The translations under genes were made by a program, and so were the position numbers. The notes under the pieces were generated by a model. It was not told the DNA's origin. It made no database searches and saw only the letters and a program-made list of their open reading frames with translations. DNA of 40,067 bases. Origin: a virus (lineage: Duplodnaviria; Heunggongvirae; Uroviricota; Caudoviricetes). Where the stretch lies: the IMG/VR virus record IMGVR_UViG_2585427781_000002; one strand, written 5' to 3'. Positions within the stretch are counted from its first letter, which is position 1. Every line of letters begins with the position of its first letter. Below, one piece after another: positions 22,207 through 40,067 of the stretch.

Positions 22207-22378
22207 CATTTCCTCTTTTAGTCTGTTATGACTTTCCTGGTACACAGTAGTGTCAATTATATGGAGCAAGCGTATAAAAGATAAGATGAAACATCGCAAT
22301 AATCAACATACGACGGTCTAAATTTCACACAAACAGATAAAGATGATTATCATTTATTATCAATGCATTAGAATCAAA

Positions 22379-22880: not shown

Positions 22881-23093
22881 TCAAAGTGCCACAACATGAA
22901 CAGCCGCGGGGCCTTTAGGTCCGTTCTCAATACCAAATTCGACTTCCTGATTCTCAGTTAACGTTTTGAAATCGTTGCTCTGAATAGCTGAGAAATGGAC
23001 AAACACATCTTTGCTACCATCTTTCGGCGTGATGAAACCAAAACCTTTTTCAGGGTTAAACCATTTCACTAAACCAGTCATTTTGTTAGACAT
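22881..23093 (-). CDS. cspI: cold shock protein, CspA family (CspI-like)
   Basis: [70 protein letters not shown]; canonical RNP motifs, 70 aa; long AT-rich upstream region consistent with a csp 5' UTR. Confidence 0.9.
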
Positions 23094-23456
23094 CATTATT
23101 ACCTTTTGAAGAAGTTAGCCCTTGGGCAGAATGGTCCGAAAAAAAATATCAGAGAGAAAAACCAACAAGGAAATCTCAAGAGGTACAAATAATAAAATTA
23201 TAACAATGACTGCTTCAGATAATTTTGTAACAAACCAGAACACCATTAACGCATGATTAACCAACCATAGCAAGGATTACTTTTGTAAAGAAAAACACAC
23301 GAATGAAACAATAGCTTTATTTATTAATAAAACGTGTCATTCTGTCTAATGACCTTTTATCTTACCCTTAAGATTTCAAGGATTTTGACTCATGGAAGAG
23401 TCCTTTTTATTTAAATTTCACATTCAGCGCTAAAAATAATCCGATTTAATATTAAT

Positions 23457-24484
<1,028 letters not shown>

Positions 24485-24611
24485 GGATATTTATCAGGAT
24501 TTATCAGTTTCTAATCTCTAGATATGTTAAGCACTCAGCCCGTCAGTGGTGGATACTGGCGTGTGTAATAAAGGGGGGATGGCTGATTACCTCTGATAAG
24601 GGAATGTAACT

Positions 24612-24908
24612 ATGAACGGTATAGATCCATTCAAACCAATCAGTAAGCAACTTGATGTGGTATTACCACAACTGACAAAACACAACGACCTTCTGGATAA
24701 AGTGTTGCCTTTTTATATTGCTGTTACCGCAAAATTATCAGGTAAAACTCGAGAAGAGGTTCTCAAATATAACATGCTGGCTTTAGAAACAATTTTTGGC
24801 TCAGAAAAAGCGGGAAAATCACCCAAAGAGCTGGCAGAATCTCAATTTGCTTATATGACAAATATAAGAGTATCCGAAATCTTTGATAAGCTACCAGACA
24901 TTGAATAA
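24612..24908 (+). CDS. hypothetical protein encoded antisense to the lysis cassette
   Basis: 98-aa ORF with AAGGGA RBS-like sequence upstream of the ATG; no signal peptide; AT-rich; convergent with the 72-aa gene. Confidence 0.5.
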   Translation: MNGIDPFKPISKQLDVVLPQLTKHNDLLDKVLPFYIAVTAKLSGKTREEVLKYNMLALETIFGSEKAGKSPKELAESQFAYMTNIRVSEIFDKLPDIE

Positions 24909-24932
24909 TTTCTAAGCGGCAGTAATGCCGCT

Positions 24933-25151
24933 TTATATTTTTTCAGCCAAATCTCTCAAGAACTGTTTGGCATGTTTTACCGCAGTAACTTCATAATAAT
25001 CCAAACCAGCTCCTTCAAGTCGCTCAAGGTTGATGTTCAGATCAAAAATTTCACCGGCAAAACGTTCTTTGTCCTGTAACGTTAAGATTACCGTAACTTT
25101 ATTCTCAAAATTGCGGGTCCCTTTCACAATCAGTTCATAGTTTTTAGTCAT
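24933..25151 (-). CDS. hypothetical small protein between holin and endolysin
   Basis: 72-aa ORF starting 5 nt downstream of the holin stop; same strand as the lysis genes. Confidence 0.5.
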   Translation of the reverse strand: MTKNYELIVKGTRNFENKVTVILTLQDKERFAGEIFDLNINLERLEGAGLDYYEVTAVKHAKQFLRDLAEKI

Positions 25152-25155
25152 TGTC

Positions 25156-25371
25156 TTACTCTCCTCTCGCAGCCTTACGCCTGTCTTCTTTAATCTTGAA
25201 ATAAAGGTTTGTCAGATACGTCAGCATGCCAAATACCAGACTACCCAATACACCTATTGCCGCCCACTGTGAGGGTGTGACTTTATCGAGCAACTGTAAA
25301 AACCAGTAGCCAGCACTGCCTGCAGAGGTGCTGTAGGCGATGCCCGTTGTTAACTTATCCATGGATTTCAT
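25156..25371 (-). CDS. pinholin, phage-21 S type
   Basis: From ATG 25371 with GGAGGTGA RBS: [71 protein letters not shown], 71 aa, with the dual-start motif (M1..M4) and two transmembrane segments, matching S21 as remembered. Confidence 0.9.
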
Positions 25372-25561
25372 AGCCTCACCTCCGCAGATAACGGATGGTG
25401 TACACGGTTTGGTTCGAAGAAGGAAAGAAGTTACATTAGCGTAAGGCCCGAACATCTATTCAAAAAGAAAAACGCCAGCAATTATTCTGGCGTAGCTAAA
25501 AATATCGTATAATCTTACACTTCAAAAAATAACTTTATAAAATGCCATCACATCATATCTT

Positions 25562-26284
25562 CTAAGAAAATCTTGATAAATATTGGTGCGGAGGCACACC
25601 AAAATATCTTCTAAAAACACTTACAAAATATGATGCATTGTCATACCCGCATATTCCCGCCACCTTGCCGACAGTATGGTTACTGTAGATCAATAATCTT
25701 TGCGCCATCATCATTCGTTCTTCAAGAATTAATTTACTAAACGATAATCCTTCGTCTTTTAATTTTCTTTTTAACAAACTCTCGCTCATATATAATCTTG
25801 AAGATATATCACAAAGTCTCCATGACGCTGAGATATCCGAGTGAATAATAGCCTTAACTTTACAACCTAAGCTATTAAGACTTCCGAACAAAAAACTTTG
25901 CACTATTTTCTCTGAAGATAAGACAGCAAGACATGCAAGTGATATTTGATTTCTAACTACATCCACGGTTTTGCTATCACAATTCAAGCATGCAACCAAG
26001 TTCTTTAACAATGAAAAATCTTCACATTCTACTATCAAGTATGACGGATAAAACCTTCTTACAGAAAAAGGTGAGAGTGTGTAGTTTTTAAAGAAATCAT
26101 TAACTGTTTTCTCCTCAACATCTACGATCATTAGATGATCTGTATTTGACGAAAAAAGATCTTTTAAATTGTATTCAATGAGGACAGCATTTCCTTTTTT
26201 AAACAAAATATCTTCTTTACCAATTCGGACACCAAACGAGTTCAACACCAAAATGATAGAACATATGTATGGCATATTATCCAC
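25562..26284 (-). CDS. AraC/XylS-family transcriptional regulator
   Basis: 240-aa ORF with a C-terminal AraC-type helix-turn-helix (...GICGYDNASYFVSVFRRYFGVPPHQY); low-GC gene with a 400-bp AT-rich upstream region. Confidence 0.85.
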   Translation of the reverse strand: MDNMPYICSIILVLNSFGVRIGKEDILFKKGNAVLIEYNLKDLFSSNTDHLMIVDVEEKTVNDFFKNYTLSPFSVRRFYPSYLIVECEDFSLLKNLVACLNCDSKTVDVVRNQISLACLAVLSSEKIVQSFLFGSLNSLGCKVKAIIHSDISASWRLCDISSRLYMSESLLKRKLKDEGLSFSKLILEERMMMAQRLLIYSNHTVGKVAGICGYDNASYFVSVFRRYFGVPPHQYLSRFS

Positions 26285-26681
26285 CTGATATCATTGGGGT
26301 TACACCAGGTAAGTATAGGTGGAAAATCAATATTCGCCAGTTCAACAATAAGGAAAATCTCATTGCATCACAACTATAAAACCATGTGTTTAACTCACAA
26401 AAAACAAATCATTAAACTAATCTGTTATATTATAATAGCTGCGTGCAATAATAATATTATATACTCTTAATATTCACTTGAAATATCTTCATATAAAAAC
26501 AGATTGAATAAAATCGTTTGGGGCTGGTATGTTTACCAACATTAAATTGCATCTCAATGTTTTCTTTAGCGTGAACAGGATTTTTATAAAAACTGACACT
26601 ATGAGCATCATAGCGTAGTTTTTACGATTGTAAATATCCTGCATACAGGAACTCATCACTTTCAGATGATATCGCATACAG

Positions 26682-27641
26682 TTAATTCACCATCAGTCTT
26701 AGAGCCAGTTCTTCCGGATAGGGATCGAAGTAATTCTGTGTAAGCAAGTAATCATTAGGATACTCACCCAGATAATGCTTCAGCAGAGTCAACGGCGCAA
26801 GAAGAGGCAATGTGCCAAAGCGATAGTTAAGTATAACCTCGCTCAACTCTTTACGCTGGCGTGTACTTAAGTAATTACTAAAATACCCCTGTATATGCAT
26901 CAGCACATTCGTGTGATTTTTACGTGATGCTGGTTTTCTGAGAATCGCCATCAGATTATCACGATACACCTCAAAGTATGATTCAAGGTCCGCCCACTCG
27001 TGTATTGCAGCCACAAATGGTCCCATATCTTTATAGCCTGCCTGGCTATGCGCCAACAACTGAAGCTTATAACGACTATGAAAAGCTAATAACTCTCTTC
27101 TTGATAATTTCTCCTTGTAAAGGTGATTGAGCTCATGCAAAGCAAAAACTCTTTCAATAAAATTCTCACGAAGCACTGGATCATGTAATCGCCCATCCTC
27201 TTCAACCGGTAGCCAGGAAAACTTTTCCATCAAAGTGCTCGTAAATAGTCCCACTCCATCTTTACGACCTCGATTACCATTTTCATCATAGACACGCACG
27301 CGCTCCATGCCACAGCTGGGAGATTTAGCACAAACCACAAACCCCGATACATCCTTTAATTTGTCCATATAAGAACGACTAAACTCTGTCATTCTCTCTG
27401 TCACATCCTCATTCTGGTCGTGGCTGAAACACATCCGTATATTTCCTTGCTTCGAGCGCACAAGTCGTAGAGCAGGACGCGGAACTGGCAGCCCTATAGC
27501 CATTTCCGGACATACTGGTCTGAATGTTACCCATTCCACTAATTTGTCCATTAAAAAGTCATCTCTTTTGTGACCACCATCAAAACGAACAGCAGAACCG
27601 CCCAAACAACCGCTGATCCCAATCACAGGTTTTTTTATCAT
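26682..27641 (-). CDS. DUF523 (TudS-like thiouracil desulfidase family) fused to DUF1722
   Basis: 319-aa ORF; N-terminal GISGCLGG...FDGG with conserved cysteines (..RPVCPE.., ..CAKSPSCGMERV..) typical of DUF523, and a helical C-terminal half consistent with DUF1722. Confidence 0.65.
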   Translation of the reverse strand: MIKKPVIGISGCLGGSAVRFDGGHKRDDFLMDKLVEWVTFRPVCPEMAIGLPVPRPALRLVRSKQGNIRMCFSHDQNEDVTERMTEFSRSYMDKLKDVSGFVVCAKSPSCGMERVRVYDENGNRGRKDGVGLFTSTLMEKFSWLPVEEDGRLHDPVLRENFIERVFALHELNHLYKEKLSRRELLAFHSRYKLQLLAHSQAGYKDMGPFVAAIHEWADLESYFEVYRDNLMAILRKPASRKNHTNVLMHIQGYFSNYLSTRQRKELSEVILNYRFGTLPLLAPLTLLKHYLGEYPNDYLLTQNYFDPYPEELALRLMVN

Positions 27642-27833
27642 TTCCTCCCCCTTGACTAATTCATTAACACATAAACTTTGTAGTGCACGGACTAAATTGC
27701 CTTTCTGGCTTCATCACTGACAATTTTTCTGTTATTGACTATTCCTAATATAGTAGGAAAGTTCTTTAAGTGATCGGTCGTACTCATCTATCTTTCATAC
27801 TTACTCTCAACTATCAAAAGTACAGGATTTATT

Positions 27834-28358
27834 ATGAAGTTATGGCCTGTGTTGACTGGCATTGCACTCTCTTTCACTCTTATAGCATGTAAGGCCCCGA
27901 CACCACCTAAAGGTGTGCAGCCGATTACAAATTTTGACGCCAACCGCTACCTCGGAAAATGGTATGAAATAGCTCGCCTCGAGAACTGGTTCGAACGTGG
28001 TCTGGAACAGGTCAGCGCTACTTATGAAAAACGGAACGACGGAGGGATTCGCGTACTTAACCGTGGATACGATCCAACGAAAAACAAATGGAGCGAGAGC
28101 GAAGGTAAAGCATACTTTACTGGAGATACTAAAACTGCAGCGTTGAAAGTTTCGTTTTTTGGCCCCTTCTATGGTGGCTATAATGTAATCAAGCTGGATG
28201 ATGAGTATAAGTATGCTCTTGTCAGTGGTCCGAACAGAGAATACCTATGGATTCTGGCAAGGACCCAAACTATTCCAGATAATGTAAAAGCAGACTATGT
28301 GCGTACCGCTCAAAAGTTGGGATTCAATGTCAATGAACTATTATGGGTTAAACAATAA
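27834..28358 (+). CDS. blc: outer membrane lipocalin Blc
   Basis: 174-aa ORF with lipoprotein signal peptide and lipobox (LIAC), then ...NFDANRYLGKWYEIARLENWFERGLEQVSATY...KVSFFGPFYGGYNVI...YLWILART.., matching bacterial lipocalin as remembered. Confidence 0.9.
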   Translation: MKLWPVLTGIALSFTLIACKAPTPPKGVQPITNFDANRYLGKWYEIARLENWFERGLEQVSATYEKRNDGGIRVLNRGYDPTKNKWSESEGKAYFTGDTKTAALKVSFFGPFYGGYNVIKLDDEYKYALVSGPNREYLWILARTQTIPDNVKADYVRTAQKLGFNVNELLWVKQ

Positions 28359-28386
28359 AATCCCCACCCGAAATGATACTTATTAG

Positions 28387-28413
28387 AAAAAAACCAGCCT
28401 TTGGGGAGGCTGG
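28387..28413 (-). terminator. intrinsic terminator downstream of Q (tR'-like)
   Basis: Stem CCAGCCT (28394-28400) / AGGCTGG (28407-28413) with loop TTGGGG; on the minus strand the hairpin is followed by a 7-nt U-run (plus-strand A-run 28387-28393). Lies about 100 nt downstream of the Q stop. Confidence 0.6.
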
Positions 28414-28513
28414 CTAAATCAGGAAACAAGCTGTTATATGATAATAACTACGTTGCGATTCCAACATTTAAAATGTTAGACTAATGAAAATCAGACAGCA
28501 ACTTTTCCTTTAA

Positions 28514-28906
28514 TTATTTCGAACAATCAGCATCCATCTCCAATCGGAGATCCAACACCATCAGCATGCCCTCCACTACGCCCTCAGCTTTCTGGAGCAT
28601 CCTGCCAACCCAACAATCAGATCGCCCATGCTTACGTGCAAGCGCCATAAAAGTCATGCCGCCGACATAATAGTCCACCAATAAATCATGTAAATCGCTG
28701 TTGTTTTTTTTCAGGCGAGCCATACATTCACAAATGATCATCGCGTCATCGTCACAGCATTGCGGACGAGATCTTACTTTTGAAGGAATTAATCCCTTAA
28801 AACCGGCGGCAATGGACGACCAGGTCACATCTTCATGATTATTAGCCGCCCATGCCCCCCAACGCTCAAGAACCATCTGAATATCACGCATCAACTTACT
28901 CCACAA
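28514..28906 (-). CDS. late-gene antiterminator Q (phage 21 / QuuD-like)
   Basis: ...[73 protein letters not shown]... closely resembles Q21-type antiterminators as remembered; the start may be the internal Met (MRDIQ). Confidence 0.85.
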
Positions 28907-28908
28907 AA

Positions 28909-29958
28909 TTAGGCCAGCACACCAATTGCCAGCGCGCGATCGATAAATCGAAAAATCAGCTCCAGTTGGGAGCCATACTTCTCTTCAAATGCCACGGTAT
29001 CCGTATGCAACTCGTCGTGATGCTTTCTGCACAAAGGCAACACAAAGAGATCATGTGCTTTGGTTCCCATTCCGCCCTGCCCGTGACCAATTAGATGATG
29101 CGGATCGTCGGCTGGCATACCGCAGCAAGCACACGGCTGTGTCTTAACCCAGCGTGTGTATTTCTCCTTAACCCAACGGTGACGTTTAGGCAGCTTCATG
29201 AAAGATTCCGGAGACTCTGGATCAACGGTGATGCTTACCACCGTCTTTTCCTGTGATGGGTTTTGTTGCTGGTGGGCGTGAGGCAACGGTGCAAGATTTT
29301 TTGTGCGCTGTTTCAATATGCTGGTGGCGGTCTGCTCTCCCGGTACGATGTCGCTTTCGCGGTACACCGAGCAGTTTTTTTCCGCTGGTAATCCCAGCGA
29401 GCGACGTAATACCACTTCCGGTAGCGCGTCCGCCACCTGATTGCGGACCGCCCACCAGGATAATTCAGCCAGAGATAATTCACGCTCCTGCGTACCGCTT
29501 ATTGCGTGACCGATGACGTCAATCATCCATGCTGACAGGTTTTGATGAGCAAGTTGCTCGAGTGATTCGGATGTCTGGTCACGCAGCTGGTTGTCGCAGT
29601 GCCAGCACAACACCATTGCGCCGGTACCATAACGGTGAATAACGGTTTCGCTGTGATGATAATCGCCGTGTGGCCACTGGCAGGATTTAATATGGCGCAA
29701 CAGCCAGTCAGACAATGCACCAGCACCACCAGCAGCACGAATTACCCGTGCGTTACTGAAAAACGGCAGCAATGTTTTGTCTTCCACCAGCGGCTGGCGA
29801 ACGGCAGGAACGACCCCGGACGGCAGATTACGCATGCTTTTCGGTTCCGGCTCCACCAGTACCCGGGTATTGTGGAATACCGGCATGGATTCACGGCCCG
29901 GCTTAACGACCACCAGCCCGAGTTCCGGTACCAGAACAGGTCGAAGTAATACCCGCAC
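28909..29958 (-). CDS. DUF968-family phage protein (YdfU-like)
   Basis: 349-aa ORF with C-terminal Cys/His-rich motif ([18 protein letters not shown]...CRKHHDELH); translationally coupled to neighbours on both sides. Confidence 0.6.
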
Positions 29959-29959
29959 G

Positions 29960-30238
29960 TTACCTCCAGATGCGTTGCTGGAATGTACGGGACGGACGCG
30001 GTGGGCGTTCGGAGTAAGGCAATCTGACTGAGATTATCCAGTGACGGTAGTCGAGACTAAGAGCTTTCTTAACCTCGTATCCGCGCCTGCGGTAACACTG
30101 AATTATCCATTCAGCCTGCTCTTCAGTGCATGGAGGGTGCTGGAACCATTCAGACTTGAATGCGTGAGAATACCGCTCGTGCGTGCAGGCAAGAACGGGC
30201 GAATTATCAGAATTGTAATATTTTACGTTGCGTGCCAT
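29960..30238 (-). CDS. hypothetical phage protein
   Basis: 92-aa ORF ending 1 nt before the DUF968 start; Cys/His-containing. Confidence 0.45.
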   Translation of the reverse strand: MARNVKYYNSDNSPVLACTHERYSHAFKSEWFQHPPCTEEQAEWIIQCYRRRGYEVKKALSLDYRHWIISVRLPYSERPPRPSRTFQQRIWR

Positions 30239-30304
30239 CGGTTTTCTCCGGTGGCACGGTGTTACTCAGCGGGAGTTCAGCCCCGCGCAAGATTGTAGAT
30301 GAGT

Positions 30305-30556
30305 TTATTCTTCTGCAAAAGCTGAAAAGCCTGCTTTTATTCCGATCTCTTTCAGTGCCTGTAATGAAGTGACAAACTCACCTTCGCGCAAGATAAATCC
30401 GTCTGTCACTCGACCATCCACAAAATTAATTAACGCAGCCCCATTCTTTCGCAAACACATAATGCGGTAATGACTAACAAGATTTCCATTTTCAACGCAC
30501 ACAGCATAGAGGCCATCTTCACAAAAAATTTTACGCAGTTCTTCGATGTTCATCAT
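30305..30556 (-). CDS. hypothetical small phage protein upstream of hok
   Basis: 83-aa ORF (MMNIEELRKIF...); same size and position as Qin rem but identity not confirmed. Confidence 0.45.
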   Translation of the reverse strand: MMNIEELRKIFCEDGLYAVCVENGNLVSHYRIMCLRKNGAALINFVDGRVTDGFILREGEFVTSLQALKEIGIKAGFSAFAEE

Positions 30557-30671
30557 CAGAATCCTTCCGGATAATTAGCTCTCCCCTTTAAGGGACCATC
30601 CCTCTTATCCCTGCGCGCTACTTAAGTATTTTTGATTCTATTCCGGCACCGTCCAGAACTTCAAACGCGTT

Positions 30672-30702
30672 GAAAATAAAAACAAAACCCCGCCGAAGCG
30701 GG
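30672..30702 (-). terminator. intrinsic terminator of the hok transcript
   Basis: Stem CCCGC (30689-30693) / GCGGG (30698-30702) with loop CGAA, followed on the minus strand by a U-rich run (plus-strand A-rich 30672-30688). Confidence 0.5.
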
Positions 30703-30772
30703 TTAAGTGCGGGTGCGTTGAGGATGCCTGCCACATCAGAGGTGGCGAGGGATTTCTCCCTCGCCGGGTCTC

Positions 30773-30928
30773 TTACTCCTCAGGTTCGTAAGCTGTGAAG
30801 ACAGCGACCTCCGTCTGGCCGGTTCGGATTCGTACCTCGCAGAGGTCTTTCCTCGTTACCAGTGCCGTCACTATGACGGTTAAACAGATGACGATCAGGG
30901 CGATTAACATCGCCTTTTGCTGCTTCAT
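30773..30928 (-). CDS. hokD: Hok/Gef-family type I toxin
   Basis: From ATG 30928 with AAGGAG RBS: MKQQKAMLIALIVICLTVIVTALVTRKDLCEVRIRTGQTEVAVFTAYEPEE, 51 aa, single transmembrane helix plus the conserved Cys; an in-frame upstream extension (mok-like) is present in the track ORF. Confidence 0.9.
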   Translation of the reverse strand: MKQQKAMLIALIVICLTVIVTALVTRKDLCEVRIRTGQTEVAVFTAYEPEE

Positions 30929-31185
30929 AGCCTGCTTCTCCTTGCCTTTCGGCACGTAAGAGGCTAACCTACATGTGTCTAGCATGAAATTGGCCTCAGA
31001 TTAATGTTAAGCGTCTTGCAGGACGCGTAATGTTAACTGGGGCTTTTCTCTACCTGCCGTTGGTGTTCGTGCCCGAGGCAGATAGCCTCAAGCACCCGCA
31101 GTCATTCTACTTAACTAAGATTTCCCCGCAAACCGTTTTGTCCAGCACAGTAAATATCCAACTAAACCAATGGAGTTCGCTGTAT

Positions 31186-31365
31186 TTACCGCCAGTATTC
31201 AATGCACATGACCGCCATGAACACCCCTAAAAAAAGGGCATTTATATATCCAAATATTAATATCAAAACATCAACTTTTTCCATATACCTTGCTGTGAAG
31301 ATGATGGGCATACATGATGCGAACAACCAGAACGCAACAAACAAAAACTGCAATGCGTTTTTCAT
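31186..31365 (-). CDS. hypothetical small membrane protein (two predicted transmembrane helices)
   Basis: 59-aa ORF from ATG 31365 preceded by a G-rich RBS-like sequence; strongly hydrophobic (ALQFLFVAFWLFA... / LILIFGYINALFLGVFMAV); AT-rich codon usage. Confidence 0.4.
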   Translation of the reverse strand: MKNALQFLFVAFWLFASCMPIIFTARYMEKVDVLILIFGYINALFLGVFMAVMCIEYWR

Positions 31366-31847
31366 TATTCCCCCTACAATCAATGTGCAATAACATTTAA
31401 ACACACCTCAATTTAGCCGGACATATAAATATCTAAACCAGAAAAAATCACTTACATAGCGTTACAAACTCTTTAGTCTAAATATTCATCGTAAAACATT
31501 CCCCATACTTATCAGCCCGTTCTGCGCCAGGTAGCTCATTGCCTTATCTGGGAACCTGTAATCAGGTTTCCGGATGCTGGTGGATTTTCGCGTTTTAGTT
31601 GTTCATAAAAGTGCACAGCTTTAACCAGTTCTTCTGATGTAACCGGGACTGGCGGGGCAGTGAATAAGGCCTGAATTTCATAGTTCGGCCTATCGTTACA
31701 ATCCTCTTTTTTCGGTACATATTTCCAGTCACCAGACCACTACTTCCCCTGAAAGTCCGTAACGCCTTTTTTTCACGTAGCGATATCGCCATGCCTTTTT
31801 TTTTGCTTCCCCCGCCGTTTCATGCCCTTCCTGATAATTAACCTCGC

Positions 31848-32024
31848 TCATTCATCGCCCCACTCATCACAATATGCTTCGACCGGAGTTTTTCCTGCTT
31901 CATAATCATCACGCCATGCTTCAGCATCAGCAGCACTGCCACCACGTAACTCTGCATAGTCCATTAACAGTTCATGCCATTCTTCAAAACCGACGTTGTA
32001 TTTAGTTGAACCAAAATCAGCCAT
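31848..32024 (-). CDS. hypothetical small acidic protein (58 aa)
   Basis: ORF below the track threshold, found by hand translation: MADFGSTKYNVGFEEWHELLMDYAELRGGSAADAEAWRDDYEAGKTPVEAYCDEWGDE, with GAGGAAG RBS-like sequence upstream. Confidence 0.35.
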   Translation of the reverse strand: MADFGSTKYNVGFEEWHELLMDYAELRGGSAADAEAWRDDYEAGKTPVEAYCDEWGDE

Positions 32025-32061
32025 TTTGTTCTTCCTCTTCGTCTTTTATTTCGTGATATGA

Positions 32062-32199
32062 TTAATTGCAGTAGTTAAAGAAAATATCTTTTGCTTCGTC
32101 ATGTATTTCATCAGGCGTCGCATCATTATCCACTTCGAATTCATCCTCGAAATCTCCACCGGCTATTCCCGTTTCAATAATTATTTTAAACTTTCGCAT
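32062..32199 (-). CDS. hypothetical small acidic protein (45 aa)
   Basis: Hand-translated ORF MRKFKIIIETGIAGGDFEDEFEVDNDATPDEIHDEAKDIFFNYCN; in tandem with the 58-aa ORF; an upstream hairpin (CCGCCC-GAAA-GGGCGG) lies between an AGGAGG and the ATG. Confidence 0.3.
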   Translation of the reverse strand: MRKFKIIIETGIAGGDFEDEFEVDNDATPDEIHDEAKDIFFNYCN

Positions 32200-32706
32200 T
32201 TAACTACCGCCCTTTCGGGCGGCCTCCTGATGTTCTGAGGGTGCAGAAATCCCTCCGGTTAAGGATTAAATTTTTAACAGTGCTAAATTTAATTATTCAG
32301 TTCTGGATTTTGTCACCCTGCGTATCCGCGCTTTCCCGTTACGCTCAATCTGAATTAGCTTTTCTATATTTTTTCGTCTTTCCCGTTCCTCCTGGCGCAA
32401 GAGCCTTACATCATCTGCCAGTCTGGTTTCTCTTTTCGCCACAGAGAGCATCCAGTCAAATGGCTCCACAACTGCACCTCAGATTTTACAGCGGACCTGA
32501 CGCTCTTTTTCGTCAACCCGGACAGAAGCGTGATGGCAATATGGTCTTTCCGATGGCTCATAAAGAAAATTAACCTGATTACGAGGGTCATCCTCTTTTA
32601 TCGGAAATAAAACGATATTGCTTAACTAATCCTCTGGTTTTATTTCCATGCTCCTCTCCTTTGATGCTAATGCCAGCGGTAATTGAAGCCTGATAGCTAA
32701 TTTCAC

Positions 32707-33129
32707 TCACAGTACCGCCTCCTGAAAATTACCCTGATAGAAAGCCAGTACACGCTGCATAGCTTCACTCTTCCGGCACTCGCGACAGATTATGTTTAGA
32801 CGACTGTCGTAGCGACGTATTTCTCCATCAGGTAGTGACCAGATAAGGTCCGGATCAACCACAGCGGGTTTCTTCACCTTCGCCCTAGAGAGTTTTTTGC
32901 GGGCATTTTGCCAGTCCTTTCGTGCCTGTTCAGACGGGAATAACCCGTAGCCGGAGTTGTATACATAACCACTGGCAACCAGCTCTCTGGCAAGAATGCT
33001 CATCAGATATCTTGTCGCACCTGTTTTAGCTTCCAACTGTCGTAATGTCTCGCGACCGCTCTGGCGCACAAGTTCGACCACCTGCTCTTTAATTTTTTCC
33101 CGCTCTTCCTGTGTAAAAACTTTTGCCAC
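32707..33129 (-). CDS. hypothetical phage protein (replication-module position)
   Basis: 140-aa ORF; its first ~42 codons overlap the last codons of the O-like ORF in another frame. Confidence 0.5.
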   Translation of the reverse strand: MAKVFTQEEREKIKEQVVELVRQSGRETLRQLEAKTGATRYLMSILARELVASGYVYNSGYGLFPSEQARKDWQNARKKLSRAKVKKPAVVDPDLIWSLPDGEIRRYDSRLNIICRECRKSEAMQRVLAFYQGNFQEAVL

Positions 33130-33878
33130 AAGTCCTCCTTAAAGGCAGCCTGTTCGTAAAGGTTCACGATCCGCCCCCAAATCCACTGCGCACACGCCAA
33201 ATCCTCCCTGCTACCCCACTGGCGTTTTTTCGCACTAAACACAACCGCGTCGGGGTTCCGGATTAAAAAATCCTGTTCAGCGGTCTGCAGGTCCGGTTGC
33301 GAAGCTTCCGGACGAAAAGTGTTTTTATTCTCTGTAGTAATCTCTGTTGTATTCTCTGTAAGATCATCAGGCCATTTTGACCCGATGACATTGGGTCGTT
33401 TTGAACCAATGGAGCGTTTCATTTTGACCTCTTCCATCGTGTCATTTTGACCTGATGGAGCGGCGCATTTTGAACCGATGGATTCGTTCAATTTGCCACC
33501 ATCTAAAAGCTCGCTCCCATAGTTGATCGTGTAGAAATTGGTCATATCGCGCTTTGATTTATTGAGCTTTTCACAACGCAAAAGCCCCAGCGTTTTCAGA
33601 CTTGCAAACGCGCGCTTTAACGTTGACTCTGACCAGAATGGGAACTGTTCCAGCCATTGTTCCGTTGTGTTGTAAATCCAGCGAACACCATCACATTCCA
33701 TGCCGGAATTGGTATCTCTCAACCAGTAATGCAACTGCTGCAACACAATGGCTTCATTTAAGCCAATCTTCATCGCAAGCTGTGTGTTTATAACCAGTGG
33801 GCGTTCAGCAAAAAGAAGGCTCATAATTCCATCCAGCTTTTTGTTGGTATTGCTGTCGATACGCAAGTTTGAAAGCAA
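33003..33878 (-). CDS. replication initiator, lambda O-like (replisome organizer N-terminal domain)
   Basis: N-terminal ..LNEAIVLQQLHYWLRDTN...RWIYNTTEQWLEQFPFWSESTLKRAFASLKTLGLL.. resembles phage replisome-organizer domains; the central SIGSK repeats are encoded by the iteron array inside the gene. The start may be an internal Met. Confidence 0.7.
   Translation of the reverse strand: MLSNLRIDSNTNKKLDGIMSLLFAERPLVINTQLAMKIGLNEAIVLQQLHYWLRDTNSGMECDGVRWIYNTTEQWLEQFPFWSESTLKRAFASLKTLGLLRCEKLNKSKRDMTNFYTINYGSELLDGGKLNESIGSKCAAPSGQNDTMEEVKMKRSIGSKRPNVIGSKWPDDLTENTTEITTENKNTFRPEASQPDLQTAEQDFLIRNPDAVVFSAKKRQWGSREDLACAQWIWGRIVNLYEQAAFKEDLWQKFLHRKSGKKLKSRWSNLCARAVARHYDSWKLKQVRQDI
33373..33500. repeat. 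iteron array (candidate origin of replication) inside the O-like gene
   Basis: Six direct repeats of CATTTTGA(A/C)C(N)GATGG-like units at about 23-bp spacing (starts near 33373, 33397, 33420, 33443, 33466, 33489), the last one degenerate. Confidence 0.65.
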
Positions 33879-34326
33879 TTGCTTTTTCTATAAGTTCGTC
33901 AGTTTCACGATCCACTACGGCAGGATCAGCAAAAAGCAGTCCGGACTCCACCACATCGCCATATTCTTTGTTTAACCCGGCGATCATGTACGTGATGCTT
34001 TTTCCGTCACTAATTTCACGATACAACCTGAAATCATTAATCCGGATAGCCTCCATAATTGCAGGCACTAGCGCCGTGAACTTTTCACGCTTATCCCTGG
34101 TGTCGATAGCCTTCCAGCGTTCGAATATCTTCACTCGATTAACGCCAAGCGCTCGCTGATCAACCGCGCCACCTTCATCTGTGACACGCTGAACATCGAT
34201 GTTCGGGCGCTCTTTCAAAGCCCAGAATGCTTCAGTGATTAATATCGTCGCCTGCTCCTGTGTCATTCCTGGTCGACATATCCAGGCATCCAGAGCCTCA
34301 CGAGCCTGTTCAGGAGTGATTTTCAT
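33805..34326 (-). CDS. hypothetical early-region protein (CII-position)
   Basis: 173-aa ORF between the Cro-like gene and the O-like gene; no confident family assignment. Confidence 0.45.
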   Translation of the reverse strand: MKITPEQAREALDAWICRPGMTQEQATILITEAFWALKERPNIDVQRVTDEGGAVDQRALGVNRVKIFERWKAIDTRDKREKFTALVPAIMEAIRINDFRLYREISDGKSITYMIAGLNKEYGDVVESGLLFADPAVVDRETDELIEKAIAFKLAYRQQYQQKAGWNYEPSFC

Positions 34327-34537
34327 TGTTCAACCGCCCCGCCCGCTTCGTCTTACGATATTCGTCATAAACCTTGGGATCATACAGAAGCTCCCCGCCA
34401 GATGCCTCCTGTAGACGCATCGCGCGACCTTCAGGAACCAGCTCTTGCCATTGAGAAACAGCAGATGGGTCAACGCCAGCAGCTTTCGCTACTTTGGCTT
34501 TCGTACCGTAAAAATTAATTACGTCTGATTTAAACAT
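34310..34537 (-). CDS. dicC: Cro-like repressor, DicC-like
   Basis: From ATG 34537 with GGAGGT RBS: MFKSDVINFYGTKAKVAKAAGVDPSAVSQWQELVPEGRAMRLQEASGGELLYDPKVY..., 75 aa, divergent from the dicA-like gene. Confidence 0.7.
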   Translation of the reverse strand: MFKSDVINFYGTKAKVAKAAGVDPSAVSQWQELVPEGRAMRLQEASGGELLYDPKVYDEYRKTKRAGRLNNENHS

Positions 34538-34614
34538 CGCACCTCCAATATTGAGTTTTCTCAATGCTAATCACTCAAGGAATCTCAAGTCAAGGGTTAT
34601 TAAGATATCTAAAT
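34538..34614. promoter_or_regulatory. divergent promoter/operator region between the dicC-like and dicA-like genes
   Basis: 77-bp intergenic region with palindrome TTGAG-TTTT-CTCAA (34551-34564) and repeated CTCAAG(G/T) units, consistent with repressor operators. Confidence 0.4.
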
Positions 34615-35022
34615 ATGAACGAGAAAACTTTAGGTCAACGCATTAGAGAAAGACGTAAGCAGGTAGGCTTAAGTCAAAACGGTTTAAGCAAAGCTGCTGG
34701 CGTATCTGGCTCATCAATTTCATTATGGGAAAGTGACCATACAGCCCCGCGTGGGCAAAATTTGCATCGCCTCGCCGAGGTATTGCAATGTTCACCAACC
34801 TGGATACTGTTTGGCGACGAGGACAAAACACCAGCTCCCCCTGTTTCACTCGATAGTGCCTTAGACTTATCGGAAGATGAGTTAGAGATGCTGCGTTTGT
34901 ATCGCGCACTTCCTAAATCAGAGCAACAAGCACAACTCAGCGAACTCCGCGCCCGCGTTGAGAATTTTAATCGCCTGTTCACCGAGCTATTAGAGGCTCG
35001 CAAACGCAACAAGCATCAATAA
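34615..35022 (+). CDS. dicA: CI-like repressor DicA (HTH XRE family)
   Basis: From ATG 34615: MNEKTLGQRIRERRKQVGLSQNGLSKAAGVSGSSISLWESDHTAPRGQNLHRLAEVLQCSPTWILFGDEDK..., 135 aa, closely resembling DicA as remembered. Confidence 0.9.
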   Translation: MNEKTLGQRIRERRKQVGLSQNGLSKAAGVSGSSISLWESDHTAPRGQNLHRLAEVLQCSPTWILFGDEDKTPAPPVSLDSALDLSEDELEMLRLYRALPKSEQQAQLSELRARVENFNRLFTELLEARKRNKHQ

Positions 35023-35214
35023 TCATCCCTTCACAAAATTTTAAAGCCTTACATTTCAATGTATTGGCTTTATCTTGCGCCAATACTTGAGTTTTCTCAT
35101 CAAAAAACCTTGACGAAAAATAATGAGAAAACTAAATTACCTCCATCAACACACCGCACGGTGTTCTCAGCAAACAGTTCCGCTACCCCGGCGTTAAGGG
35201 GAAATGAGGTCAGC

Positions 35215-35367
35215 ATGGATACTATCGATCTTGGCAACAGCGAATCTCTGGTATGTGGCGTGTTCCCCAACCAGGACGGTACGTTCACCGCGATGACATA
35301 TACCAAAAGCAAAACGTTTAAAACCGAATCTGGCGCGCGTTGCTGGTTAGCCAGAAACACTGACTGA
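35215..35367 (+). CDS. ydfA: YdfA-like small protein, first gene of the dicB operon
   Basis: From ATG 35215 with GAGGT RBS: MDTIDLGNSESLVCGVFPNQDGTFTAMTYTKSKTFKTESGARCWLARNTD, 50 aa. Confidence 0.7.
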   Translation: MDTIDLGNSESLVCGVFPNQDGTFTAMTYTKSKTFKTESGARCWLARNTD

Positions 35368-35744
35368 TGAGGCTGACGATGGAATTTAAAGATTTACCGT
35401 CTGATGTACAGAAAACAGCAGCTCATACATTGCATTCTGTGCTGCGAGAAATCGGGAAAGATATTGCAAGCGAGCCAGCAAAAGATCTGGCCCGGAAAAT
35501 CAAGACCGCTTTCGTTGAGCTTTATAATGTTGGCACTGACTCTGAAACTGTCGAGACCAAGACCGTAAGTTCACCAATATTCTCACTTGAGCCAGGCGTA
35601 TTAGCAGGTGAAATATGCACCGAGATTTCCAGCGAACTGCTTCCGGTAATACGAGAAGCAATTTGCCGTCGCGGTTTGGATGGAAGTTACGATCATGACG
35701 TCCTGCAAGTTCTCAGGACAATGGTGACTTCACTGGGGATTTGA
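35367..35744 (+). CDS. hypothetical protein of the dicB operon (YdfB/YdfC position)
   Basis: 125-aa ORF whose ATG overlaps the ydfA stop (TGATG). Confidence 0.55.
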   Translation: MRLTMEFKDLPSDVQKTAAHTLHSVLREIGKDIASEPAKDLARKIKTAFVELYNVGTDSETVETKTVSSPIFSLEPGVLAGEICTEISSELLPVIREAICRRGLDGSYDHDVLQVLRTMVTSLGI

Positions 35745-35913
35745 TCCCTGCGTCCTCTAACCTTTTGATATAGCGGTCCTCCAAGAAGCGGTAAATTTTG
35801 TCGAAATCATCTTTCCCCTCTGGTTTATTCAGAGGATTACAGGACCCGTAAGTAGCGGCATACATTTCAACCGTTTTATCAAAAATATAAGAGACAAATT
35901 CTTCTTTAGTCAT
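35713..35913 (-). CDS. hypothetical small protein antisense to the dicB operon
   Basis: 66-aa ORF from ATG 35913 with AAGGAA RBS-like sequence: MTKEEFVSYIFDKTVEMYAATYGSCNPLNKPEGKDDFDKIYRFLEDRYIKRLEDAGIKSPVKSPLS. Confidence 0.4.
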   Translation of the reverse strand: MTKEEFVSYIFDKTVEMYAATYGSCNPLNKPEGKDDFDKIYRFLEDRYIKRLEDAGIKSPVKSPLS

Positions 35914-36187
35914 ATAGATTTCCTTCTTGGTTATTCGGAATAAGAAGGATACCACCTCGCCTGACGTGGTTAAAAGCAGGCACACAACACGAAAGCGCAC
36001 GGCGAAGTTCGTCTCACTGTACGGTGTCGTTAAATTTAATTCGACCGTGCGCTTCCGGTTGTGGCAACCCGCGAAATGGCGCGGCGGTAAGTATGGCGGG
36101 GGTATTCCTTCCCCGTTGAGGACACCGAGTTGTCAGGTTGACCATACGCTTAAGTGACAACCCCGCTGCAACGCCCTCTGTTATCAA

Positions 36188-36246
36188 TTTTCTGGTGACG
36201 TTTGGCGGTATCAGTTTTACTCCGTGACTGCTCTGCCGCCGTTTTT
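36188..36246 (+). ncRNA. dicF: DicF small regulatory RNA
   Basis: TTTCTGGTGACGTTTGGCGGTATCAGTTTTACTCCGTGACTGCTCTGCCGCCGTTTTT matches the DicF sRNA as remembered, including the terminal hairpin plus T-run; located between the ydfB/C-position gene and dicB. Confidence 0.8.
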
Positions 36247-36415
36247 AAAGTGAATTTTGTGATGCGGTGAATGCGGCTAAGCGCACGCGGAACAGTTAAA
36301 ACCAAAAACAGTGTTATGGGTGGATTCTCTGTATCCGGCGTTAATTGTTAACTGGTTAACGTCACCTGGAGGCACCAGGCACTGCATCACAAAATTCATT
36401 GTTGAGGACGCGATA

Positions 36416-36604
36416 ATGAAAACGTTATTACCAAACGTTAATACGTCTGAAGGTTGTTTTGAAATTGGTGTCACTATCAGTAACCCTGTATTTACTGAAG
36501 ATGCCATTAACAAGAGAAAACAAGAACGGGAGCTATTAAATAAAATATGCATTGTTTCAATGCTGGCTCGTTTACGTCTGATGCCAAAAGGATGTGCACA
36601 ATGA
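36416..36604 (+). CDS. dicB: cell division inhibitor DicB
   Basis: From ATG 36416 with GAGGA RBS: MKTLLPNVNTSEGCFEIGVTISNPVFTEDAINKRKQERELLNKICIVSMLARLRLMPKGCAQ, 62 aa. Confidence 0.9.
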   Translation: MKTLLPNVNTSEGCFEIGVTISNPVFTEDAINKRKQERELLNKICIVSMLARLRLMPKGCAQ

Positions 36605-36792
36605 ATTCAGCATTTGCGCTTGTTCTGACAGTTTTTCTTGTTTCCGGAGAGCCAGTTGATATTGCAGTCAGTGTTCACAGGACAATGCAGGAGTGTATGA
36701 CTGCAGCAACCGAACAGAAAATTCCCGGTAACTGTTACCCGGTCGATAAAGTTATTCACCAGGATAATATCGAAATCCCGGCAGGTCTTTAA
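36601..36792 (+). CDS. ydfD: YdfD-like small membrane protein
   Basis: ATG overlaps the dicB stop (ATGA); MNSAFALVLTVFLVSGEPVDIAVSVHRTMQECMTAATEQKIPGNCYPVDKVIHQDNIEIPAGL, 63 aa. Confidence 0.8.
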   Translation: MNSAFALVLTVFLVSGEPVDIAVSVHRTMQECMTAATEQKIPGNCYPVDKVIHQDNIEIPAGL

Positions 36793-36885
36793 AACAGTTC
36801 CGTAATAAATATCCGGTTTCATTCTTATATGCCAGCAATGGCAGGGATTTGTTCATCCTTAAATCTGTCATGAGGTTAAAACAAA

Positions 36886-39357
36886 ATGAGTAAAGTCTTT
36901 ATTTGCGCCGCTATTCCTGACGAACTGGCAACAAGGGAAGAAGGCGCTGTGGCTGTAGCCACAGCCATTGAAGCTGGCGACGAACGCCGTGCTCGAGCAA
37001 AATTTCACTGGCAGTTCCTGGAACATTATCCGGCTGCTCAGGACTGCGCTTATAAATTTATTGTCTGCGAGGATAAACCTGGCATACCCCGCCCTGCCCT
37101 CGATTCATGGGATGCTGAATATATGCAGGAAAACCGCTGGGATGAGGAGTCTGCTTCTTTTGTCCCGGTTGAGACTGAATCCGATCCGATGAACGTCACT
37201 TTTGACAAGCTGGCCCCTGAAGTACAGAACGCTGTCATGGTTAAGTTCGACACATGTGAAAACATCACCGTTGATATGGTTATTAGCGCACAGGAATTGT
37301 TGCAGGAAGACATGGCAACATTCGACGGACATATCGTTGAAGCGTTGATGAAAATGCCAGAAGTTAACGCCATGTATCCGGAGCTTAAGTTGCACGCCAT
37401 TGGGTGGGTTAAGCATAAATGTATTCCTGGTGCTAAATGGCCCGAAATTCAGGCAGAGATGCGCATCTGGAAAAAACGTCGCGAAGGTGAACGCAAGGAA
37501 ACCGGAAAATACACGTCTGTTGTTGATCTCGCCCGCGCCAGAGCCAATCAACAGTACACTGAAAATTCAACAGGAAAAATCAGCCCGGTCATTGCTGCCA
37601 TTCATCGCGAATACAAGCAGACATGGAAAACACTGGATGACGAACTGGCCTACGCTCTCTGGCCTGGTGATGTGGATGCCGGAAACATTGACGGCAGCAT
37701 CCATCGCTGGGCAAAAAAAGAAGTTATCGACAACGACCGCGAAGACTGGAAGCGTATCTCGGCATCAATGCGCAAACAGCCTGATGCCCTTCGCTACGAC
37801 CGCCAGACTATTTTTGGCCTTGTCCGTGAGCGTCCGATCGACATTCACAAAGATCCCATAGCACTGAACAAATATATCTGCGAATACCTGACGACAAAGG
37901 GCGTGTTTGAGAATGAAGAAACAGACCTGGGCACTGTTGATGTTCTCCAGTCATCAGAAACACAAACTGATGCAGTGGAAACTGAGGTATCTGATATCCC
38001 AAAAAATGAAACCGCGCCGGAAGCTGAACCATCTGTAGAGCGTGAGGGGCCGTTCTATTTCCTCTTCGCAGATAAGGACGGAGAAAAATACGGTCGCGCA
38101 AACAAACTTTCTGGTCTGGATAAGGCACTGGCTGCTGGCGCCACTGAAATCACAAAAGAAGAATATTTTGCCCGAAAAAATGGCACATACACGGGCTTAC
38201 CGCAAAATGTAGATACCGCTGAAGATTCAGAACAACCAGAGCCGATAAAAGTTACCGCTGACGAAGTAAACAAAATTATGCAGGCAGCCAATATCAGCCA
38301 GCCTGACGCCGATAAGTTGCTTGCTGCATCACGTGGTGAATTTGTTGAAGGGATTAGTGACCCGAATGATCCGAAATGGGTTAAGGGGATCCAGACCCGC
38401 GATTCTGTGAACCAGAACCAGCATAAATCGGAACGGAACTACCAAAAAGCGGAACAAAACAGCACAAATGCGTTACAAAACGAGCCAGAAACGAAACAGC
38501 CTGAACCAGTGGCGCAACAGGAAGTGGAAAAAGTCTGCACCGCCTGCGGTCAGACCGGCGGCGGCAACTGCCCTGATTGTGGCGCGGTGATGGGCGACGC
38601 AACATATCAAGAAACATTCGATGAAGAATATCAGGTTGAAGTTCAGGAAGATGATCCGGAGGAAATGGAAGGCGCTGAACATCCACACAAGGAGAACACT
38701 GGCGGCAATCAGCATCACAATAGCGATAATGAAACTGGCGAGACGGCAGATCACTCAATTAAGGTGAACGGTCATCACGAAATCACATCCACCAGCAGGA
38801 CGTGTGACCATCTAATGATCGACCTTGAAACCATGGGAAAAAATCCTGATGCCCCGATCATCTCAATAGGTGCAATATTTTTCGATCCGCAAACCGGAGA
38901 TATGGGACCGGAATTTAGTAAGACTATCGATCTGGAAACTGCTGGCGGAGTCATTGATCGGAACACCATTAAATGGTGGCTTAAGCAATCACGCGAAGCG
39001 CAATCTGCCATTATGACCGATGAAATCCCGTTAGATGATGCACTGTTACAATTGCGGGAATTTATCGACGAAAACTCCGGTGAATTTTTTGTTCAGGTTT
39101 GGGGAAATGGAGCCAACTTCGACAACACGATTTTGCGCCGTTCATACGAACGGCAGGGGATCCCCTGCCCGTGGCGTTACTACAACGATCGCGATGTACG
39201 CACAATCGTTGAGCTGGGGAAAGCCATAGACTTCGATGCCAGAACGGCTATTCCATTCGAAGGTGAGCGCCATAATGCACTTGATGACGCCCGTTACCAG
39301 GCAAAATACGTTTCAGTTATCTGGCAAAAACTGATCCCGAGTCAGGCTGATTCTTAA
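36886..39357 (+). CDS. large early-region protein with a C-terminal DnaQ-like (DEDDh) 3'-5' exonuclease domain
   Basis: 823-aa ORF with GAGGT RBS; C-terminal ~200 aa carry exonuclease motifs (MIDLETMG..., ..GNGANFDNTIL.., ..HNALDDARYQA..); a central CxxC...CPDC zinc ribbon; N-terminal ~550 aa acidic and of unknown function. Confidence 0.6.
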   Translation: MSKVFICAAIPDELATREEGAVAVATAIEAGDERRARAKFHWQFLEHYPAAQDCAYKFIVCEDKPGIPRPALDSWDAEYMQENRWDEESASFVPVETESDPMNVTFDKLAPEVQNAVMVKFDTCENITVDMVISAQELLQEDMATFDGHIVEALMKMPEVNAMYPELKLHAIGWVKHKCIPGAKWPEIQAEMRIWKKRREGERKETGKYTSVVDLARARANQQYTENSTGKISPVIAAIHREYKQTWKTLDDELAYALWPGDVDAGNIDGSIHRWAKKEVIDNDREDWKRISASMRKQPDALRYDRQTIFGLVRERPIDIHKDPIALNKYICEYLTTKGVFENEETDLGTVDVLQSSETQTDAVETEVSDIPKNETAPEAEPSVEREGPFYFLFADKDGEKYGRANKLSGLDKALAAGATEITKEEYFARKNGTYTGLPQNVDTAEDSEQPEPIKVTADEVNKIMQAANISQPDADKLLAASRGEFVEGISDPNDPKWVKGIQTRDSVNQNQHKSERNYQKAEQNSTNALQNEPETKQPEPVAQQEVEKVCTACGQTGGGNCPDCGAVMGDATYQETFDEEYQVEVQEDDPEEMEGAEHPHKENTGGNQHHNSDNETGETADHSIKVNGHHEITSTSRTCDHLMIDLETMGKNPDAPIISIGAIFFDPQTGDMGPEFSKTIDLETAGGVIDRNTIKWWLKQSREAQSAIMTDEIPLDDALLQLREFIDENSGEFFVQVWGNGANFDNTILRRSYERQGIPCPWRYYNDRDVRTIVELGKAIDFDARTAIPFEGERHNALDDARYQAKYVSVIWQKLIPSQADS

Positions 39358-39429: not shown

Positions 39430-39681
39430 ATGAGCGAAGTAATCATGATTGTCTCTCCCGGCAAATGGGTATCCGAAGAGCAGTTAATTGCGCTGAAAGG
39501 AATAAAAAAAGGTACGTTAAAAAAGGCCCGGGAAAAATCGTTTATGGAAGGAAGGGAATATAAGCATGTCGCTCATGACGGTATGCCATGGGATAACAGT
39601 CCATGCTTTTACAACCTGGAAGAAATTGATCGCTGGATTGAGCGCCAGGCATCAGCGAGACCAAGACGTCATCTTACTTGA
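39430..39681 (+). CDS. putative excisionase
   Basis: 83-aa ORF immediately upstream of the integrase start on the same strand; basic C-terminus. Confidence 0.55.
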   Translation: MSEVIMIVSPGKWVSEEQLIALKGIKKGTLKKAREKSFMEGREYKHVAHDGMPWDNSPCFYNLEEIDRWIERQASARPRRHLT

Positions 39682-39715: not shown

Positions 39716-39828
39716 ATGAAATATCCGACAGGCGTGGAAAACCATGGAGGGAAATTACGTATCTGGTTTGTTTATAAAGGCGTAAGAGTCAGGGAAAATC
39801 TGGGGGTTCCTGACACAGCAAAAAACAG
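39716..39828 (+). pseudogene. integrase gene 5' fragment, truncated by IS1
   Basis: ATG 39716 gives MKYPTGVENHGGKLRIWFVYKGVRVRENLGVPDTAKNR, typical of lambdoid tyrosine-integrase N-termini as remembered; the frame is cut at 39829 by the IS1 terminal inverted repeat. Confidence 0.75.
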
Positions 39829-40067
39829 GGTAATGACTCCAACTTATTGATAGTGTTTTATGTTCAGATAATGCCCGATGACTTTGTCATGCAGCTCCAC
39901 CGATTTTGAGAACGACAGCGACTTCCGTCCCAGCCGTGCCAGGTGCTGCCTCAGATTCAGGTTATGCCGCTCAATTCGCTGCGTATATCGCTTGCTGATT
40001 ACGTGCAGCTTTCCCTTCAGGCGGGATTCATACAGCGGCCAGCCATCCGTCATCCATATCACCACGT
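39829..40067 (-). mobile_element. IS1 insertion sequence (partial, runs off the right edge)
   Basis: Begins with the terminal inverted repeat GGTAATGACTCCAACTTATTGATAGTG, followed by the reverse complement of the insB 3' end. Confidence 0.9.
39844..40065 (-). CDS. insB: IS1 transposase InsB, C-terminal part
   Basis: Track ORF ...[69 protein letters not shown] matches the InsB C-terminus as remembered. Confidence 0.9.

Follow-up and report, generated by a model that had tools for sequence, protein, structure and literature searches.

Identification of the exonuclease gene

A viral DNA stretch of 40,067 nucleotides (nt), IMG/VR record IMGVR_UViG_2585427781_000002 (Caudoviricetes), was analyzed at its full length and is called the window here. 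The window contains a Qin/PPompW-type lambdoid prophage adjoining rspB, and the analysis was centered on one large early gene, named exonuclease gene below. Its open reading frame (ORF) lies at 36886..39357 on the plus strand, starts with ATG, ends with TAA and codes for 823 amino acids (aa). The sequence GAGG was found 10 nt 5' of the ATG. The DNA of the gene was 100% identical to the gene of WP_032216168.1, which was named 'exonuclease' by the Prokaryotic Genome Annotation Pipeline (PGAP). An earlier description made from the letters of the DNA, i.e., the sequence-only reading, had given the coordinates and the length exactly. From the alignments and domain searches given below, it appears near certain that the encoded protein is a RecE-family scaffold in which the 5'-3' nuclease was exchanged for a 3'-5' DEDDh nuclease.

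The DEDDh nuclease domain

The C-terminal domain (aa 642-813) was recognized by the Pfam profile PF16473 (Rv2179c-like) with an E-value of 4.1e-67 and 225.7 bits, compared with a gathering score of 27, and the match covered profile positions 2-177 of 177. The DEDDh motifs were located as M-I-D646-L-E648, N-F-D746-N, and H796-NALD-D801. The residues D646, E648, D746, H796, and D801 were invariant among eight relatives, the most distant of which has 52% identity, and also in T4 DexA, where they align with D7, E9, D119, H186, and D191. Judging from this conservation, the DEDDh active site is predicted to be catalytically intact. The sequence-only reading had proposed a C-terminal DnaQ-like domain from the same motifs and had named conservation of the DEDD residues as a check; both the profile match and the alignment bore out the proposal.

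The nearest relative of solved structure was 8KEL/8KEN, a 227-residue 'Exodeoxyribonuclease', which was the only close match in the PDB sequence search (E=4.6e-8). The aligned sequence of 8KEL/8KEN matches DexA in the translated T4 genome. T4 DexA is a 3'-5' DNA exonuclease (PMC12153337). No RNase was matched in the PDB sequence searches with the nuclease domain.

The N-terminal scaffold

The N-terminal part of about 550 residues had been left without assignable function in the sequence-only reading. Its relationships could be assigned for two segments. The segment aa 1-256 was 100% identical (256/256) to YdfE (b1577) of strain K-12, a pseudogene of the Qin prophage. The segment aa 262-625 aligned with residues 278-591 of RecE of the Rac prophage (E=3e-61, BLASTP against K-12 RecE). 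This identity reached approximately 80% over aa 474-625, which span the 'SRGEFV[ED]GISDPNDPKWVKGIQTRD' motif, the zinc ribbon, and the acidic tail, and a DPNDPKW motif was also common to the scaffold and RecE. Because of this RecE-homologous region, the protein is better regarded as a RecE-family member with a swapped nuclease than as an unrelated protein. The sequence-only interpretation was therefore partly supported, and the homology to RecE and YdfE is what it missed.

The Pfam domains PF27430 (YdfE_N) and PF27432 (YdfE_C) are both precomputed on proteins that are 100% identical to the window protein over the N-terminal 473 aa; the assignment was taken from those proteins and was not re-scored on the window protein. 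In the NCBIfam RecE model NF007259, only aa 246-625 were matched (model positions 271-602), with 280.4 bits vs a cutoff of 1269. The RecE homology ends where the PD-(D/E)xK nuclease of RecE begins, and the RecE nuclease domain has been placed at residues 564-866 (PMC11611040). No PD-(D/E)xK nuclease was found by Pfam (PF12684), by tblastn with the RecE nuclease, or by fold search of the AlphaFold model of aa 1-510, in agreement with the earlier statement that the nuclease is not of this fold. The N-terminal PF06630 (Exonuc_VIII) head was not matched by Pfam either, and the head is of YdfE_N type.

The whole protein is acidic, with an isoelectric point (pI) of 4.67, and aa 351-625 have a pI of about 4.3; the acidic N-terminal region had been noted before. 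A disordered acidic segment connects the scaffold with the DEDDh domain. The folded units and linkers of the AlphaFold2 (AF2) model are listed in Table 1 with the predicted local distance difference test (pLDDT) scores and the ratios of nonsynonymous to synonymous substitution rates (dN/dS). In the 'GPFY...GRANK' mini-domain, G388, P389, F390, Y391, R404, A405, and K407 were invariant among 89 sequences. The zinc ribbon, CxxC-x8-CxxC at aa 551-566, had also been predicted correctly, and all four cysteines are kept in RecE and in diverged relatives. Compared with the alleles of mEp460 and Evi, the folded units had dN/dS values of 0.05-0.19 and the linkers predicted as disordered had values of 0.67-0.99, and the value for the DEDDh domain was 0.19. 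As this pattern mirrors the AF2 domain map, the whole multi-domain protein is kept by selection.

A modular RecE/YdfE family

Relatives of the scaffold were searched exhaustively with aa 1-625 among 1.84 billion cluster representatives (50% clusters), and full-length relatives were then classified. This search replaced an earlier word-index homology search with aa 1-473, which had been saturated by E. coli copies of at least 90% identity and gave no diversity. Only 246 relatives were obtained. Their heads are of two alternative kinds, i.e., YdfE_N or the RecE head PF06630 ('Exonuc_VIII'). The modules in the middle are held in common: the aa 240-345 domain, found in nearly all relatives whichever the head type, the GPFY mini-domain, the DPNDPKW motif, and the zinc ribbon, which is an optional module across the family. 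The C-terminus is one of four alternatives, i.e., the DEDDh domain, the RecE-type PD-(D/E)xK nuclease (DUF3799), a conserved third domain of ~280 aa, or a short tail. Head unit 2 was also present in relatives with the PD-(D/E)xK, third-domain, or tail C-termini, and every combination of head and C-terminus was found. Given these alternative heads and alternative C-termini, the window protein is placed in a modular RecE/YdfE family as one of its domain-swapped members.

In the AF2 model of the third C-terminal domain, a long beta-sheet is preceded by one helix and followed by another. Its reading as a Rad52/Red-beta-like annealase was unsupported. No Pfam match and no PDB match by phmmer were obtained, hhalign gave E=0.2 with Bet and E=0.5 with RecT, and the best Foldseek hit had E=0.03, so the annealase reading was not used. 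Two RecE-derived chimeras were also observed. In P0203, RecE residues 1 to about 527 are joined directly to a RecT-like C-terminal part, and P0211 is missing the part that lies between its head and zinc ribbon. Both look like deletion products within recE-recT.

Genomic context

The genes around the exonuclease gene were ordered as cI/DicA-like repressor, DUF1391, DicF, dicB, ydfD, exonuclease gene, excisionase gene (xis), and integrase gene (int), which agrees with the position given in the sequence-only reading, i.e., where lambdoid phages carry exo/bet or recE/recT. Because DicF is present upstream of dicB, the dicBF-type operon is considered intact, with the exonuclease gene at its distal end. 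By consensus scanning for a promoter or terminator of its own, nothing above background was found. The positions of the genes and of the protein features are given in Table 1.

Table 1. Positions of the exonuclease gene, its protein features, and neighboring genes in the window
Feature	Position	Strand	Remarks
Whole gene, intact ydfE-type RecE-scaffold::DEDDh exonuclease, 823 aa	36886..39357	+	phrog_2082 match 1-822/823
Head unit 1 (aa 1-100), small alpha/beta domain, part of YdfE_N	36886..37185	+	
Head unit 2 (aa 101-205), helical domain	37186..37500	+	AF2 pLDDT 84-95; dN/dS 0.06-0.07
Middle helical domain (aa 240-345), homologous to RecE ~278-360	37603..37920	+	pLDDT ~90; dN/dS 0.19
Acidic disordered linker (aa 346-385)	37921..38040	+	pLDDT 24-52; dN/dS 0.67-0.75
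'GPFY...GRANK' mini-domain (aa 386-440), beta-hairpins and helices	38041..38205	+	pLDDT ~80; dN/dS 0.06-0.08
Conserved 'LAASRGEFVEGISDPNDPKW' motif region (aa 474-510), common to RecE 455-480	38305..38415	+	
Zinc ribbon CxxC-x8-CxxC, CTACGQTGGGNCPDCG (aa 551-566), common to RecE 517-532	38536..38583	+	
Acidic/His-rich linker (aa 567-625), last RecE-homologous segment, to RecE ~591	38584..38760	+	
DEDDh (DnaQ-like, PF16473) 3'-5' exonuclease domain (aa 642-813), predicted	38809..39324	+	
Catalytic codon D646	38821-38823	+	
Catalytic codon E648	38827-38829	+	
Catalytic codon D746	39121-39123	+	
Catalytic codon H796	39271-39273	+	
Catalytic codon D801	39286-39288	+	
Divergent ydaT-like gene	33805-34326	-	
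Divergent cro/ydaS-like gene	34310-34564	-	
DicA/cI-like helix-turn-helix repressor heading the leftward early region	34564..35022	+	
DicF small RNA, same early-left (dicBF-type) operon, upstream	36190..36241	+	Rfam, 72.5 bits, E=4.6e-15
dicB, immediately upstream	36416-36604	+	
ydfD/DUF1482, immediately upstream	36601-36792	+	
Excisionase (DUF1233), next gene downstream	39430..39681	+	
Integrase 5' stub, arm-binding domain only, cut by IS1	39716..39829	+	

The gap between the exonuclease gene and xis is 72 nt, and no annealase gene lies between them. The tblastn searches of the 40-kb window with RecT (two types), Bet, Gam, and Exo, and with the RecE nuclease domain (591-866) and the third domain, gave nothing at E<0.01, so that the earlier remark on a missing partner annealing gene before xis holds for the whole window. 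The PGAP annotation of identical prophages also contained no annealase, single-stranded DNA-binding protein (SSB), or Gam; SSB was judged by annotation only. The exonuclease gene is thus the sole recognizable recombination-type gene of the prophage.

The same arrangement was seen outside the window. The gene was directly followed by xis in ten loci of five genera, and by xis-int in nine of them. These loci include Tritos, vB_EcoS-640R1, mEp460, Evi, and PPompW, and diverged loci from Kluyvera, Klebsiella, Raoultella, and Citrobacter. The exception is Evi, in which the gene annotated after xis is a mobile-element protein, not int. The genuine RecE genes of Rac and mEp237 are followed by recT. 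Given the repetition of this arrangement across loci, the absence of an annealase is a family-wide property of the DEDDh variant.

The integrase gene of the window is cut after about 38 codons, and an ORF for the C-terminal part of IS1 InsB was found at 39844..40065 on the minus strand. The homology to intact prophages ends at 39829. With its integrase cut by IS1, the prophage is probably locked in place. A low-GC stretch (35-44% vs 51-61% in the structural genes) was observed at 21000-29000. According to the annotation of identical prophages, it contains cargo-like genes, i.e., blc lipocalin, a YbgA family protein, cspI, gnsB, and hokD.

Distribution and previous records

At least 80% of the gene was covered in 3,537 of 5,426 complete E. 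coli genomes. Genes of identical DNA occur in many E. coli genomes under the PGAP names 'exonuclease' or '3'-5' exonuclease', and the gene is also present in phages deposited as complete genomes. The full-length family in PHROGs is phrog_2082. Some copies are broken, i.e., by a frameshift in PPompW_EH1846 (locus L013, 3001-5468) and by the IS2 insertion in K-12 ydfE (locus L004, 4079-4999). Most other copies are intact.

As an object, the gene is already known: it was catalogued in 2025 and it is extremely common. DnaQ-like nucleases in lambdoid Rec modules were reported by Zheng et al. (Genome Res 2025, PMC12315714). In Table 1 of that paper, Tritos is the prototype of a four-phage class that has the nuclease, no single-strand annealing protein (SAP), SSB, or anti-RecBCD function, and many Chi sites. 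The Tritos gene is 98.9% identical to the window gene and has the same neighbors. The available passages of the paper contain no mention of RecE-scaffold homology or a domain swap. In the literature searched, an explicit statement of the RecE-scaffold homology, or of combinatorial shuffling of heads and effectors, was not found in print. The literature found on ydfE (with Qin, exonuclease, and dicB) consisted of passing mentions and no functional study. The database names conflict among three choices, i.e., 'exodeoxyribonuclease VIII', '3'-5' exoribonuclease', and 'exonuclease'. The exodeoxyribonuclease VIII annotation is corrected once the protein is recognized as a RecE scaffold whose nuclease has the opposite predicted polarity and which has no annealase.

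Eight Chi sites (GCTGGTGG) were counted in the window, spanning 24059-38796, vs 1.24 expected from shuffles. Five of the eight are on the strand equivalent to the lambda top strand, and a cluster was seen at 24-32 kb, the window not being a whole phage genome. Five sites fall within 650 bp (29268-29917), in both orientations, inside the ydfU/DUF968 ORF (28909..29958, minus strand). One site is inside the exonuclease gene (38789-38796, minus strand). For the Tritos class, Chi sites are described as abundant, with most of them on the top strand and a cluster at the right end (PMC12315714).

Proposed role

The most likely role, with a probability of roughly 0.45, is that of a 3'-end-processing DNA exonuclease that would cooperate with host recombination. 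Upon induction or infection, the early-left transcript would give rise to the protein. By means of the scaffold, the nuclease may be directed to DNA ends or a host partner, as is presumed for RecE. The DEDDh domain would then remove nucleotides from DNA 3' ends by two-metal catalysis, and the 3'-tailed ends and flaps would be trimmed or blunted, so that host RecBCD and RecA could act on the phage DNA. One way of helping RecBCD to load would be to blunt the 3' tails. Such a role differs from Red/RecET-style 5' resection for single-strand annealing. [quoted passage not shown] The trimming or blunting role is suggested because the phage class is without Gam and annealase, has a host-like Chi density, and falls under this proposed RecBCD-Chi dependence.

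Several points weigh against this role. DNA is preferred over RNA as the putative substrate only from the 25% identity to DexA, and the Pfam family PF16473 is named after an exoribonuclease. With 8 sites per 40 kb, Chi is about as dense as on average in E. coli, and the orientation is weak (5/8). According to Zheng et al., 3'-5' exonucleases usually depress recombination (PMC12315714). The function of the RecE N-terminal region is itself unknown (PMC11611040), and the same domain family includes EcD, an E. coli protein active in defence (PMC12153337). No experiment on the protein or on a close relative was found in the literature.

The main rival explanation is inter-phage defence or superinfection exclusion, in which the prophage-borne DEDDh nuclease would degrade incoming phage nucleic acid. 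It was added in this analysis and was not among the suggestions of the sequence-only reading (PMC12153337). Such a role would resemble those of EcD and of the TONDOs. EcD ('HREX'), a stand-alone E. coli homologue of DexA, digests DNA containing 5-hydroxymethylcytosine (5hmC) and protects against T4 (PMC12153337). The TONDOs are prophage DEDDh exonucleases with auxiliary domains, and they protect against RNA phages. The window protein shares the domain family of DexA and EcD, resembles the TONDOs in its auxiliary domains and prophage location, and is extremely prevalent in E. coli prophages, cryptic ones included. Against it, the gene is at the distal end of a repressor-controlled early-left operon, not in the position of a moron expressed in lysogeny. 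The 5hmC-recognition residues reported for DexA (W152 and D169; PMC12153337) are not kept in the window protein: the W152 position is Y766 here and Y, C, W, or R among relatives, and the DexA-specific insertions, including the D169 loop, are missing. The Asp for tetramerisation, D90 of DexA, is Ala in EcD, whereas it is retained here as the conserved D718. Identity with the tested EcD (HAK9828821.1) was rejected, because the EcD primers match nowhere in the window; in viral contigs, they gave a single 20-mer match, which was judged as chance. In the PADLOC defence models, the full-length protein had no match, and the C-terminal domain scanned alone gave a weak generic Cas-associated DEDDh match (7e-7). 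The TONDOs are described as sequence-distinct and were chosen among proteins of <500 aa. A role in exclusion is considered unlikely; if it were true, an exclusion factor would be encoded by a prophage gene that is very widespread.

An RNA exonuclease would trim RNA 3' ends, the candidates being the early-left/dicBF transcripts or host RNAs. The name of PF16473 (Rv2179c-like 3'-5' exoribonuclease), the label '3'-5' exoribonuclease' given by PGAP to many copies, and the processing of the operon RNA to yield DicF would suit such an activity. It was considered quite improbable, as the PDB sequence matches are to the DNA exonuclease DexA and not to an RNase, and the scaffold is common to the DNA exonuclease RecE. 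The sequence-only reading had offered two roles, i.e., a recombination nuclease of unusual polarity or an anti-defence nuclease. Between these, the evidence leans toward the recombination nuclease. An anti-defence nuclease would degrade host immune nucleic acids such as signaling oligonucleotides, retron multicopy single-stranded DNA, or guide RNAs. Only general points, i.e., an early, orphan nuclease gene, speak for it, whereas profile searches and PADLOC found no similarity to known anti-defence proteins and no link was found in the literature, so it was given little weight. Least probable of all is that the gene is a remnant of a RecE gene, left without function when nuclease and partner were lost. 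The many broken copies, such as those of K-12 and PPompW_EH1846, and the cryptic state of the window prophage itself with int cut by IS1 speak for it. However, purifying selection is evident domain by domain, the catalytic residues are invariant across genera, and the same architecture and synteny recur across five genera and among phages whose genomes were deposited as complete.

A broader reading, which is speculative and at present doubtful, concerns the whole family. The RecE/YdfE scaffold might be a general targeting platform for DNA ends or a host factor, to which enterobacterial lambdoid phages would attach a 5'-3' nuclease, a 3'-5' nuclease, the third domain, or no effector interchangeably. 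The DEDDh version would then steer host RecBCD-Chi/RecA recombination independently of an annealase. If this were true, the swap would reveal the role of the N-terminal two-thirds of RecE. The natural domain-swap series offers a probe of this unexplained N-terminal region of RecE, which matters for linear-linear recombineering. It also gives a concrete handle on the use of host recombination by 'Rec-module-poor', Chi-containing lambdoid phages.

Comparison with known systems

The SynExo recombinases, i.e., lambda Exo/Beta and RecE/RecT, combine a 5'-3' exonuclease with a cognate annealase, whereas the window protein has neither. T4 DexA and EcD belong to the same DEDDh subfamily as the window protein and have identical catalytic residues. 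However, both are stand-alone proteins of roughly 190-227 aa, whereas the window domain is fused to a scaffold of 625 aa.

As in the Tritos-type recombination module (PMC12315714), the window has the nuclease and Chi sites, and SAP, SSB, and anti-RecBCD are absent. The window copy differs in that it is placed in a cryptic prophage damaged by insertion sequences. K-12 ydfE is placed in the same position after dicF-dicB-ydfD as the window gene, but it is cut by IS2 and is without everything from aa 257 on, the nuclease included. The 'RecE-2'/phrog_2489 proteins, e.g., P0128, have the YdfE_N/YdfE_C scaffold in common with the window protein at 30-45% identity and are in the same operon position. 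They carry the conserved ~280-aa C-terminal domain of unknown fold in place of any nuclease.

RecE shows the same overall plan as the window protein, with a large scaffold followed by a C-terminal nuclease, and the same operon position near xis-int. RecE has the PF06630 head and a recT partner, whereas the window protein has the YdfE_N head and no such partner. The C-terminal nuclease of RecE is of PD-(D/E)xK/DUF3799 type and acts 5'-3'; in the window protein, the predicted 3'-5' DEDDh nuclease stands in exactly that place.

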